From the NCBI RefSeq assembly GCF_013167455.1, contig NZ_CP038328.1: a DNA stretch of 64,000 nucleotides, one strand, 5' to 3'. A program made the position numbers. Positions 34,201-40,200 of this stretch are shown here, piece by piece. This stretch comes from Escherichia coli O157:H7. GTDB lineage: Bacteria > Pseudomonadota > Gammaproteobacteria > Enterobacterales > Enterobacteriaceae. The stretch's first letter is position 1. Each line of letters begins with the position of its first letter.

Positions 34201-37200
34201 AAATTGGTTTTAGCACTGGCTTATAGTGATTGCCAATTAATGTCCCTATACCATAGCAGCACAAAACAAACCAAAATGCCGGACGGCCCTCACCACAACA
34301 ATAGAGTGTTCCTGACGCACATGCTCCGGCAATTTGCATTCCAATACCAAAAACAAACGCACCCACCAGAAAAGGGATACTTATTGCTGTAATATTCCCA
34401 ACCATCTTCCCGCCAAAAAAAGCATGGCTGAATGACAGGCAGAGTGTAAACAAAACCACCTCAAGAGCGATGGTAATTAAGTGAATCCTTACATAGTATG
34501 AGTTGCTCATGGTCAGCATGTCTCTCCAACCTGCAACTATCCCAAATCGACTAAAAGACAATGTAAAACCCAAGAAAAAACCAATAATTGCAAGTACGCC
34601 CCACTTCATACCAAAACTATTAGCAAGCCAGTAACTAAATGACAGCATGACAATAAAAATAAATAATATAGTTATGTTTTTCTGAAGCCTTATTTTATAC
34701 ATTTTTAATATACCTATATGTTTCCACGTGATGCGCTGATGTACTTGCTGAAAAGGAATCGTTCCAGAAATGTATCTACGCAATATCCTGAACACGTTAC
34801 CCAAAATGCCTGTTCCAGAATGATACTCACCTATAAATAACCGTCAATATGACGCTCAAGTACTTTCTGTGAGATAATGCAGCGAATTGATACGTAAGCG
34901 TACAGCGAGGGCCGTATTGACGGGGATGTGTTATTCAGCTGGCAGTGCTATGCGCCACGGAAGCAGTTCGCTGACCCGGTTGACCGGCCAGTCTGCTATG
35001 ACGCCAAGCACATGGCGAAGGTAGCTTTCTGGATCCACGTCATTCAGTTTGCACGTCCCGATCAGGCTGTACAGTAGCGCTCCCCGCTCACCACCATGGT
35101 CAGAGCCGAAGAACAGGAAGTTTTTACGACCCAGACTGACCGCCCGCAGGGCATTTTCAGCGATGTTGTTGTCGATTTCCACCCAGCCATCGTTCGCATA
35201 GTACGTCAGTGCCGGCCACTGGTTAAGTGCGTACGCGAACGCCTTCGCCAACTCTGAGTGTCGCGACAGGGTCTTCATCTTTTCACGCAACCAGCTTTCC
35301 AGGGATTTCAACAACGGTTTCGTTTTTCGCTGACGTTCAGCAAGCCGCTGCTCTGCCGGCATTCCCCTTATATCCGCCTCTATGGCGTACAACTGACCGA
35401 TCTGCTCCAGGGCTTCTTCCGTCAGTGCTGACGGGATGCGGACGTGCACATCGTGGATCTTTCGGCGGGCATGAGCCCAGCAGGCAGCTTCCGTTATCCC
35501 ACCATTGCGATACAGCTCGTTGAACCCGGCGTACGCATCCGCTTGCAGCACACCGCTGACCCTGCATTGCGGTCATCACGAACATACGCCCACAACCGCC
35601 CGGTCTTCGTCTTCTTATTACCCGGCAGCAGTACCTGGACCGGGGTATCATCGGCATGGAGTTTGCCGTCAGTCATGACATAGCCATGAAGCGCCTCTTC
35701 CAGCGGAGACAGCAGCCGGCAGCATGCATCCACCCAGCCCGACAGCAGTGAACGGCTCAGCTCCACACCTTGCCGGCCGTATATTTCTGACTGGCGATAC
35801 AGCGGGGTGTGCTCTGCATACTTCGAGGTCAGCACGCGGGCCAGCAGCCCCGGTCCGGCGATACCCCGCTCGATGGGCCGCGAAGGTGCAGGTGCCTGCA
35901 CGATGGCATCGCACTGAGTACAGGCATGTTTTTCCCGTACCGTCCGGATAACCCGGAAGGCGCTACGCATCAACTCCAGCTGTTCGGCGGTATCCTCGCC
36001 CAGATAGCTCAGTGAACCGCCGCAGTTCGGGCAGCACGGCGCCGCAGGCAACAGTCGCTTTTCGTCACGGGGTAGTGATTCAGGGAACGGCTTACGGGTG
36101 CGGGTCTGACGCAACGGACGCTGTACTGCCGGGTCATACACCCTACCAGTCAGCGTATCGCTCTCTTTCTGAAGCCGGTTCAGATCGGCTTCCATTTGTG
36201 CGATACGGCGGGAGACTTTTTCGGAACGACTGCCGAAGTTCATCCGGCGGAGTTTATCCAGCTGCGCCTGCAGATGGTCTATTTCGCGCTCCCGGTTGCT
36301 CAGCTTTTCCTGCAGGGCGTGGATCAGCGCTTCCTGTTCGGCCAGGCGCTGTTTCAGCAGGAAGATGTCGTCAGAAGAGATGTCGTTCATAAGCCCGTAT
36401 TTTACCGGGCTTATTCTGTGACAACCAGGATAAAGAGATTTACAGCATGGTCAGGGAGGTCAGCAGCCGCTTAGGCTGTCGCCAGTCGATACCTTCCAGC
36501 AGCATCGCCAGCTGCGCCTGCGTAAGGAACACTTTGCCATCACGGGCTGACGGCCAGGCGAAGCGCCCACGCTCCAGCCGTTTGGTCAGGAGGCACAGCC
36601 CGTCACCGGTGGACCACAGCAGTTTAACCTGACTGCCGCTGCGGCCCCGGAAAATGAAAACATGGCCGGACATGGGATCGTCTTTCAGCGCCGTCTGTAC
36701 TTTCGCAGCCAGGCCGTTGAAGCCATTTCTCATATCGGTGATACCGGCAACCAGCCAAATTTTGGTCCCGGAAGGTAACGGGATCATCGCTTCAGTTCCT
36801 GTATCAGCAGAGTCAGGAGCTTTTCGCTGACATTGCCATTGAAGCGGAGCGTCCCGTGCCGGAACGTTACCTCACAGCTGATACTGAGGGTTTCCGGGTC
36901 CTCTGCGAGCGATTCTGGCTGTTCGGCAGCTGCATCGAGAGTCACAGGAAGTAGCTGGGGGCTCTCTGAAGAAGGTAATAGCAGCTTTCCCTCGCGCCAT
37001 TGTTGTCGCCATTTGAACAACAGATTGGCGTTAATGCCATTTTCAAGAGCAAGTTTTGAGATGGATATCCCGGGTTCACAGGAGGCAGCAACGAGCTGCT
37101 GTTTAAATTCGGGAGGATAATTAGGGCAGCCTTTTCGCCTGCCGGGAGTCACATTTTTCTGCATATCTGATACTTTGGTTCCCACTACTTATTTGGTGGA

Positions 37201-40200
37201 CACCACTTTGTCTAATTCGTCAGATTCTGACCAGACGGTTCAGGCTGTACGCTTACATTGATACTGACAATTCAACGTCCGTCATCGCTCCCCCAATGTG
37301 TTGAGGTTAGGTAGAAATGATAACAAATACACCGCTCCTGCCCCTGTAACCTCCCCTTTTTTATACGCTCATTTTTGCGCACTTTTTCGATCATCACGTA
37401 TCGGTTTCGTTTTGCGCTTCCTGTTGCGTTTCGTTTTTGAGAAAAATGCGCAGTTTTTTGCGCACTTTTTGAGGTGTCTATCCCCCTGCAAGCCGCGTCA
37501 TATCTGGCTTTGCTCTGTTTGTCTGTGTGATCGATTTTGTGATCAGTTTTATGATCGATTTGCGCACTTTTTTGCGCATTTTTTCAGGGATTTTTCACCC
37601 CATCGAAGAGGCTTCTAAGGGGCTGTGAAGTGGGTAGCATTTTGCTGTGATGGAAGGACTACCGCTACTGTCTGATAATGGTGACGGAGGCCGCTATGTT
37701 CGGCTCTGATTGCAGCCTGCCGTATATTCACCAATTTACCTGGCTGTTATTTCCATAACCCGTAATGTCGCCGATCCCGTCTGATTCCCATATCGTCAAC
37801 AGTCTTATTTACAGCATCCTGAAGTTCGCAAGGCATATTTCCCGCCGTCTGGCTATATGTTCTCGCTGCGGATCGGTGTGGGCCTCTTTCATTACGTCAA
37901 GCCAACGAGCGGCGGCTCTTCGCCATAGTCCCTGAGATTCCAGTTGTTCGGCTTTTTTATCAGTTATTGTGTCCATATTAACTTCCGTCTCTTCGCCCTG
38001 TTTCACCCCTGTACTTCGTGCCCCGTAAAGGATCTTCTTTTTTCTGGTCAATCCCCATATCTTTAAGCGTTCTGGTCGCTGCTGCCCTGACGGCGCATAC
38101 ATGCCCCCACTCTGTTGTTTTTGGTCTGGTGGCTTTTGCCGTGCATTGCGCCCTTCGTTGGGTAATATAGTGCCTCTCTTCATCAGTTTTTGCCTGTCTG
38201 AACAATTCTCCCCAGCGTTCAGCAGCACGCCGCCAGAGGCCGCTATTCTCCAGCGCTTCAGCCTTGTCATCACGTATCATCTGTACCCCGCCGATTCTGT
38301 CCTTTCAAAATTTGTCTTATGGCTTATTGTATGAGGGATTCATCCTACAACAAGAAAGGTCACTATGAGACTGACGCAATACAAAAAAGAGATCCTCAGT
38401 TACTTCACTCCCGACAATCTGGCGTGGGTTACTGCCGAAATTGGCAGTCCGCCGTTTGATGTCTCCGGTGTGGCTTACCTGCTGCATGGTATGGATTCAT
38501 TCAACAGCCGGTATCAGATCGAATCAACAAGGCGCACGCTGGAAGCTATGGTGCGTGATGGTCTTCTTGAGCGGATTAATGTGTATGAGCGTCGTGAGGG
38601 CGCTGGTGATGGTGTTCGTCGAAAGGTGGCGCGTTATGGCCTGCCTGGTCATTCTGTTGTGGTGCGTGACGGTGAGGGCCGGAACGGTGCAATTGACGGC
38701 GAATGTATACGCATCAATGCTACAGATGTGGTGCTGGTGGAGGGGCAATAAAAAACCCTGAAAGATTTCTCCGGGTGCTCCAGTTGCACGTGGCAGAAAT
38801 CCTTCAGGGTCAGCCGTAACGGGCCTCTGTACAGAGGGCTCCAGTTGCCCAGAGATGAGCACCCGCTACAGCCTGTTGTGATAAGCCGCTTTACAGTGAG
38901 CTCCAGTTGCTCAAAGAGGCGCGTTTTTATCACAACCTGACCGCGATAACCCGCTGTACAGAGGGCTTCAATTGCCCAAAGAGGCGCATTCTTATCGCGG
39001 CATGACGAAATCACCGTGATGTTTTCGTCGTTCACTCATCCCGATGTGTGGGAGATGCACCGGAATGAGTGCCGAAAAGCCGCTGGCTGGCTTCATGCAG
39101 TCGGACTCAGTTGCCCGGGGCGAACACCATCAACGGCCTTTTGGTGGTGATTATAGCGAATCGCGATAATTGAGCAAATACGGTGATGAGATGCGTATCA
39201 CGGTAGCGCTAAATCGTCGCCTGCATCACTGAAGCTGTAATTTCTCCATTCATCCTGCGGATTAATCCCCATCTCTTTCAGCGTTCTGTCTGCGGCCTTT
39301 TTCACATCGCCAAAGGTGACGAACTGCTCAGGCATACGACGGGTTTTACTGATGCATATCGCCCGACGTCTGGCAGCTTCCTCGCGTTCACTGTCCGTTT
39401 CTGCGTGAAGAAGAACCTCAGCCCATCGGGTCGCCGCACGTCGCCATAAACCGCGCTCCTCAAGTTTCTGTGCCACGCTGTCCGTCATCACTGGCTTTAC
39501 CTCCGGCTGATTACTGCTGACTGTTTTTCTGCTTCATCTGCTCCAGTCTCCGCTTCAGTAGTTCGCTGGCTACTGATTTATCTTCTTCCGTGACTTCACC
39601 GCAAGGTTGCCCGTTCAGTCCATACCGTGCGCCGCCAGCGACAATGGCTTTCAGGTATCGCGTCGTGTGGATGTATGAGGTTAATGCGCCACGTAATACG
39701 CCATGACCAATCGCCAGTTCCCGCGCCTTCGCGTCCTGCAACATATCGTGTATCACGCCAGCCTTAAGGGGTTTTATATTCTCTGCCCCAAACAGTTCAG
39801 GCCAGTACTCAGCCAGTCGGTTTATCCTCCTGCGGTTTTTTCGCTGCCGCTTTGTCATGTGCTGCCACGGTATGCGCCGTGATGGTTTACGTGTGGTCTG
39901 GTCCTGTTGTGTGGTCTGCTGGTTCATGTTGTGCTCCTGTCATTCAGAACGGAATATCGTCAGAGAACGGGTCATCACCTCCCGCTGGTGGCTGATTCCC
40001 CCGTGTTCCGGTCTGTCGTTTTGCTCTTTCCAGTGCTTCGGTCGCCTTCCCCTGTTGCCCCCGCTTCCCGCCAGGACGCGCCGAACGGGCACTGATTACG
40101 CTGTCAGCGATAACCTGCCAGCCCTGCCGTATTTCTCCGTTCTGTCCGGTCCACTGACTGATCTGCATGTTACCCGCCACGCTGATAAGGTCGCCTTTTT

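Follow-up and report, generated by a model that had tools for sequence, protein, structure and literature searches.

A decaying ISEc8 copy on the yicC island of Escherichia coli O157:H7

Two ISEc8 copies in the window

The stretch of DNA analysed here (64,000 nucleotides of Escherichia coli O157:H7, assembly GCF_013167455.1, contig NZ_CP038328.1; hereafter the window) contains two copies of ISEc8, an insertion sequence (IS) of the IS66 family. The present work deals mainly with the second of them, copy 2, which lacks 79 bp of the transposase gene tnpC and lies in an island integrated at yicC. It is very probable that copy 2 is a non-autonomous, decaying ISEc8, carried as a passenger on this island. 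A preliminary description based on the sequence had given the coordinates and lengths of both copies, their same orientation and both 8-bp target duplications, and these proved exact when the two regions were read and aligned. The main features, in window positions, are as follows.

3168..5609 (2442 bp), minus strand: ISEc8 copy 1, intact, with tnpA at 5137-5517, tnpB at 4793-5140 and tnpC at 3205-4743
3160..3167 and 5610-5617, unstranded: target-site duplication of copy 1, TTTTGTTG
34894..37256 (2363 bp), minus strand: ISEc8 copy 2, defective, with tnpA at 36784-37164, tnpB at 36440-36787 and both terminal inverted repeats intact
34886..34893 and 37257-37264, unstranded: target-site duplication of copy 2, ATTGATAC
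35494..36390, minus strand: 5' fragment of tnpC in copy 2, 298 aa, the last ~19 out of frame, matching positions 4-180 of 387 of the IS66 transposase profile
34931..35551, minus strand: 3' remnant of tnpC in copy 2, out of frame, 206 aa from an internal GTG, matching profile positions 206-384 of 387
35554..35559, unstranded: CGCTGA retained at the deletion junction of copy 2 (copy 1 has both repeats, copy 2 one)
30210..48534 (18.3 kb), minus strand: integrative phage-like island carrying copy 2, with the attachment (att) core GAATCTGCTC at 30210-30219 and 48525-48534 and the integrase at 47059-48321

In both copies tnpA, tnpB and tnpC are on the minus strand, and the copies thus form direct repeats, 29,284 bp apart. 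Apart from the deletion they are 99.7 % identical; a single 79-bp gap is the only length difference, and the alignment gave six point differences (copy-1 positions 3350, 3373, 3949, 4108, 4952 and 5048), where at least three had been counted in the preliminary description. The longest run of identity shared by the copies, 843 bp, lies between the differences at 4108 and 4952. A search of the window for terminal repeats gave four ISEc8 ends in all. The inverted repeats of both copies start with GTAAGCG and match at the outermost 13 of 13 bases, and partially further in.

The assignment to the IS66 family, and to ISEc8, is based on the gene trio tnpA-tnpB-tnpC, a DDE_Tnp_IS66 TnpC with leucine-zipper and zinc-finger N-terminal domains, the inverted repeats and the 8-bp target-site duplication. 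The NCBIfam models matched by copy 1 were NF047595/NF038385 (IS66 TnpA), NF033819 (TnpB) and NF033517 (IS66 transposase), and the Pfam matches on its TnpC were PF13007 (39-110), PF13005 (119-161), PF03050 (DDE_Tnp_IS66, 175-461) and PF13817 (468-505). The window copies resemble the ISEc8 of O157:H7 chromosomes and pO157 in being a 2442-bp element with the order tnpA-tnpB-tnpC, ends starting GTAAGCGTACAG and an 8-bp target duplication, and the identity of the element to the other copies compared is 99.7 % or more. Copy 2 differs from standard ISEc8 in lacking the 79 bp of tnpC, with no full DDE transposase, and in its site in the yicC island, which is rare (four complete genomes and the window).

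The 8-bp duplications found were TTTTGTTG and ATTGATAC in the window and TTTGTATC, CGTTGAAC and GGTTCACA at other ISEc8 copies. A conserved ISEc8 target had been suspected from plasmid matches running 7-17 nt past the IS ends; it was ruled out, as the flanks show the differing target duplications TTTGTATC and CGTTGAAC and the extension arises by chance.

Copy 1 is located beside the espF end of the locus of enterocyte effacement (LEE), within the selC island; judged from its genes, it looks intact and is putatively active. The collections searched in this work comprised 5,426 complete genomes and 72,556 plasmids. Copy 1 with its flanks was found at 100 % identity in many O157:H7 genomes, and at least 80 % of this query was covered in 295 O157-type genomes. 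ISEc8 is active in O157, with strain-specific insertions in prophage-like DNA (PMC6776261; PMC7430833).

The 79-bp deletion and the broken tnpC

The gap in copy 2 spans copy-1 positions 3828-3906, with the hexamer CGCTGA at both edges (3828-3833 and 3907-3912 in copy 1). This 6-bp microhomology at the edges of the deletion points to slipped-strand misalignment between the two repeats as the way in which the 79 bp would have been lost. When the intervening DNA was inspected for a hairpin that would pair up the CGCTGA repeats, none was unusual (z = 0.96).

Whereas tnpC encodes 512 aa in copy 1, copy 2 has open reading frames of 298 and 206 aa; together with the endpoints fixed by the alignment, this bears out the earlier proposal of a frameshift caused by a 79-bp deletion between CGCTGA repeats. 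The deletion takes out approximately residues 280-306 of TnpC and shifts the frame from approximately residue 280 onwards, midway through the DDE catalytic domain. As far as can be deduced from the reading frames, a full catalytic domain is not encodable by copy 2. Its tnpA and tnpB have the same length as in copy 1. Autonomous transposition takes an intact transposase, which is absent from copy 2: its tnpC is frameshifted, and the deleted allele occurs at a single site. Copy 2 would be mobile only with TnpC supplied in trans. In RefSeq, the copy at the same site in strains F6667 and 10205 is labelled 'tnpC IS66 family transposase, frameshifted'.

Copy 2 in other genomes and plasmids

A synthetic empty site was made by joining the flanks of copy 2 via one ATTGATAC. 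At least 80 % of this query was covered in 61 complete genomes, many of them matching at 100 % over the full length, including many O157:H7 strains and O103:H2 strain 12009. In O157:H7 Rafaela_II, 41 kb are colinear with the window, except for the IS, one target copy and nine small differences, and a single ATTGATAC is present. The own target duplication of copy 2 and the uninterrupted target in the 61 genomes agree with the preliminary description, in which copy 2 was regarded as an independent insertion.

For the deletion itself, a 120-nt junction probe was discarded, since its halves join across the 79 bp in full-length copies, and at least 80 % of it was covered in 3,173 genomes. It was replaced with a probe of 44 nt, each half of which is below the 28-nt seed, so that full-length copies cannot seed a match. 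With this probe the junction was found in 2 of the 5,426 genomes, F6667 and 10205, with one match each and at this site only, and in none of the 72,556 plasmids.

The preliminary description had pointed out that the 79-bp difference might be an assembly artefact. Copies that are repeated approximately ten times per genome are a classic cause of a collapsed or chimeric consensus, and two other genomes have a full-length copy at the same site; copy 2 could then in truth be full length. The identical junction in two independently sequenced, complete genomes, once in each and only here, shows that the deletion is not an artefact. The microhomology signature of slippage and two private single-nucleotide differences flanking the deletion, at 35755 and 36599, common to the window and F6667, also speak against an error of assembly or consensus, which we regard as extremely improbable.

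The same searches bear on whether the deleted copy is a non-autonomous element that is actively mobilised in trans by intact ISEc8 copies. Both inverted repeats, tnpA and tnpB are intact in copy 2, and an intact tnpC is present in the same window in copy 1. An element in active movement is hard to reconcile with a junction confined to a single site in the genomes and lacking from the plasmids, and such trans-mobilisation is highly improbable.

Copy 2 together with its flanks was found in three complete genomes, and in a fourth with partial coverage. The deleted form is present at the same site in F6667 and 10205. In F8798 a full-length ISEc8 occupies the same target, with the same target duplication, and in OkiPb01717 a full-length ISEc8 at the copy-2 target is further broken by ISCro1. 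As this site, with its target duplication, is occupied by full-length copies in two genomes, the insertion preceded the deletion.

Four of the differences from copy 1 (3350, 3373, 3949 and 5048) are common to all the same-site copies. Three of these four shared differences were also absent in the comparison with the one plasmid ISEc8 copy compared, and at those three positions it may be copy 1 that deviates, going by this one plasmid copy. On sequence grounds, copy 2 is not descended from copy 1; the source would rather have been an ISEc8 of the type also seen in the one plasmid copy. The change at 35755 (copy-1 position 4108) is restricted to the window and F6667, being lacking in 10205, F8798 and OkiPb01717.

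The island at yicC

The 3' end of yicC is the insertion site of the island with copy 2, which brings a replacement C-terminus for yicC; strain TW14359 has an empty yicC-dinD site. The island genes encode a tyrosine integrase, an AlpA-like regulator, Ant, an Icd-like protein, a P4-type primase, SSB and ProQ/FinO, and further three PerC-family proteins, YeeE/YedE and antiterminator Q (from the annotation and PHROG matches), and the RNAs C4 and isrK are also present. The c4/isrK-icd-ant region is of the P1 type, and the three PerC-family regulator genes are located approximately 30 kb from the LEE. One further insertion sequence lies in the island.

~31470..32795 (approximate), minus strand: IS2, its transposase with an internal stop, in the left arm of the island, between the two ISEc8 copies

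The IS2 is present in the window, 10205, OkiPb01717 and Rafaela_II and cleanly absent in F6667 and F8798, a distribution discordant with the pattern of the ISEc8 deletion and point differences.

Without ISEc8 the island is 15,944 bp long. From the phage DNA of O157:H7 induced with ciprofloxacin, Yin et al. obtained two phage genomes of 15,957 bp, located at yicC (PMC4587872), and Miyata et al. described a prophage at yicC_dinD in 15 clade-8 strains (PMC9997748); the published names for the yicC element are phage genome and prophage, respectively. The correspondence of the island to both reports is one of site and size, not of sequence. In the phage collection searched for the island, the best match was an induced element of 16.5 kb, distantly related, with 77.6 % identity across the primase. 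The island resembles P4-like satellites and phage-inducible chromosomal islands (PICI) in its tyrosine integrase, AlpA-like regulator, P4-alpha-type primase, c4/isrK-icd-ant immunity region and size of approximately 16 kb, and in its site-specific att in the 3' end of a gene. It has the integrase, regulator and primase/replication module expected of a phage satellite, in a site-specific island in the range of 10-18 kb. Among the 10 island proteins scanned, none was recognised as the product of a capsid-redirecting or packaging gene.

Copy 2 is inserted in the spacer that separates the PerC-family genes from YeeE/YedE, and the start codon of the latter lies 191 bp downstream of it. By its position the insertion is intergenic and appears not obviously to inactivate any gene. 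In this it differs from IS-inactivated or decaying copies in enterohaemorrhagic E. coli (EHEC), such as stx2a::ISEc8 in strain 9000 and the IS629 polymorphisms. A candidate promoter, TTGACG-16-TATCAT, lies between copy 2 and YeeE/YedE, on the basis of a consensus match only.

Copy 2 as a passenger on a moving island

Between the window and strain 10205 there are 231 differences in 19.6 kb of core sequence (approximately 1.2 %), compared to three in 13.2 kb of the island. In F8798 the same cargo segment, with ISEc8, is joined to a different integrase module at clpS/cspD. That the island is near-identical despite the diverged core, together with the module swap in F8798, indicates that it moves and recombines horizontally, taking the broken ISEc8 along.

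In F8798 the cargo half (Q, YeeE, ISEc8, PerC, ProQ, SSB, primase; locus 1779-12410 against window 31177-43063) is at least 99.8 % identical to that of the window. There it is located between clpS and cspD and has another regulatory and integrase module attached, which amounts to a module swap between related islands.

The sequence of events that we favour began with the transposition of a full-length ISEc8 into the PerC-YeeE/YedE spacer of the approximately 16-kb yicC element, with duplication of ATTGATAC. This copy then lost 79 bp of tnpC while keeping tnpA, tnpB and both inverted repeats, and the broken copy has since been carried passively by an island common to unrelated E. coli backgrounds. 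Insertion and deletion were inherited with the island, and the data require neither event to have taken place in the genome studied here. The nearest complete genome to the window in the collection is F6667, though it has no IS2 and has a 184-bp duplication.

Several points weigh against this account. All four combinations of deletion state and T/C at 36599 (copy-1 position 4952) occur among the five same-site copies, which do not make a clean tree, and the presence of IS2, which F6667 lacks, is discordant as well. The four combinations and the discordant IS2 imply gene conversion between ISEc8 copies, recombination of the island or recurrent change. The island corresponds to the published 15,957-bp element by site and size (15,944 compared to 15,957 bp), not by sequence. 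The loss of TnpC function is a prediction from the sequence, and the island may have passed out of O157:H7 into other lineages or in the opposite direction.

The four combinations would be accounted for if the 79-bp deletion had arisen more than once at this site, rather than once and with subsequent gene conversion, and slippage between fixed short repeats can be repeated. The junction was found in no other ISEc8 copy of the collection, which holds thousands of ISEc8-bearing records and 22,764 matching places for the copy-2 query, and given this absence it is implausible that the deletion would arise again at this copy alone. Conversion from other ISEc8 copies, in turn, easily gives T or C at 36599. 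Recurrent slippage is therefore distinctly unlikely, and a single deletion in a copy that is carried along by the island is preferred.

Copy 2 in itself is ordinary and implies no new mechanism or function: the IS is well known, this copy of it is decaying and is already listed by RefSeq as a frameshifted pseudogene, and the island on which it sits is known and inducible. The ISEc8 insertion, the 79-bp deletion, the 184-bp end duplication and the ISCro1 and IS2 polymorphisms provide discrete markers for strain typing, with which the movement and recombination of this small inducible island among EHEC lineages can be traced; they have little significance beyond typing. The case also calls for caution, as the possession of its own target duplication does not prove that an IS copy transposed in the genome where it is found.

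The interval between the copies

The 29,284-bp interval consists of approximately 5.1 kb of selC-island DNA, approximately 19.4 kb of core sequence from selC to dinD, and approximately 4.7 kb of the left arm of the yicC island, including IS2. The transition from the LEE/selC island to the core segment is marked by the following gene.

10734..10828, minus strand: tRNA-Sec (selC)

The preliminary description had the two copies bracket ~29 kb of core genes. Core genes, from selC to dinD, make up only approximately 19.4 kb of the interval, and copy 2, rather than adjoining dinD in the core, is within the mobile yicC island. 'IS-bracketed core genes' thus need not have chromosomal DNA as the bracket; here, both copies are in mobile islands. 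The genes gmk and spoT are in the interval, and from what is established on their essentiality, a loss of the interval should be lethal. The earlier expectation that a deletion between the copies would probably not be tolerated is in accordance with this.

It had also been proposed that the copies could mediate duplication or amplification of the interval. The pair would then act as an amplification unit, or as a composite transposon for the selC-dinD region, and the copy number of gmk-spoT-recG would vary in the population. As direct repeats of 2.4 kb that are identical over runs of up to 843 bp, the copies could support unequal recombination, and their outer ends make a proper inverted pair. 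Tandem duplications flanked by IS elements or rrn operons, formed by RecA-dependent unequal crossing-over, are well established, and the two long direct repeats 29 kb apart resemble such arrangements. Unlike in these, no duplication junction is seen here, and one of the repeats is on an excisable element, so that copy 2 leaves the chromosome at each excision of the island.

Within the collection, no complete genome other than F6667 has copy 2 in an O157:H7 background; over window positions 12564-58250, F6667 is colinear with the window, except for the missing IS2 and the extra 184 bp, and both are single-copy. Among the genome matches there was no hybrid junction of the left flank of copy 2 with the right flank of copy 1, and the sole match with just one flank is accounted for by an ISCro1 insertion. 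The two homologous flanking copies that an IS-flanked unit needs are thus present, and no sign of duplication or movement was found in the form of a novel junction, a changed copy number or the unit elsewhere. Such duplications are unstable without selection and are not visible in a consensus assembly. O157:H7 genomes carry approximately 9-12 ISEc8 copies each, any pair of which could do likewise, and this pair is therefore not special. Amplification is a generic possibility here, and a role of the pair as an amplification unit or composite transposon is very unlikely; a passive load on the yicC island remains the preferred description of copy 2.

The selC-island remnant that forms part of the interval contains, at 9104-9226 on the minus strand, a strong match (150 bits) to the isrC family of Hfq-binding small RNAs.

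The 184-bp end duplication

The most unusual feature near copy 2 is a duplication of its end. The terminal 184 bp of copy 2 (window 37073-37256) occur in tandem in F6667 (locus 23174-23541) and OkiPb01717 (locus 10262-13327), while the window has a single unit. F6667 and OkiPb01717 share T>C at 37171 in the first unit, and at the new junction in both, the IS end is joined directly onto GGTTCACA. The left boundary of the duplication is this same GGTTCACA (37073-37080), which is the exact 8-bp target of ISCro1, also of the IS66 family, in OkiPb01717. A one-ended or intramolecular attack, in which an IS66 end struck a preferred target within its own element, could have left the duplication as a scar; we offer this tentatively and hold it to be rather unlikely. 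If true, it would be a rare natural clue to the poorly characterised mechanism of IS66 transposition and target choice.

On plasmids, ISEc8 was seen abutting, or at most 60 bp from, the terminal repeat of another IS66-family element (pO157 of F3398, locus 1490-1510; a second plasmid, locus 1447-1517). In pO157 of F3398 the 8-bp target begins at the last base of the '...CGCTTAC' end. It seems that elements of the IS66 family tend to be grouped end to end.

Other observations on the island

To the right of copy 2, at 37360-37585, repeated TTTTTGCGCAC motifs (small hairpins followed by T runs) and 12-bp TGTGATCGATTT repeats were found in a spacer of 542 bp that has no annotated gene. The intergenic region that separates a hypothetical gene from a PerC-family gene has three 38-nt repeats with a spacing of 62-65 nt (38824-38988). 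A palindrome, which reads CCTCTGTACAGAGG in the reference copy, is found in each, and the repeats may be operator or iteron-like sites of the island. At the att junction on the dinD side (30195-30219) the window reads caatgttgaatctgctc, compared to caatgttctgaatctgctc in the empty site of TW14359, a 2-bp difference that is not accounted for by a simple crossover within the 10-bp core.

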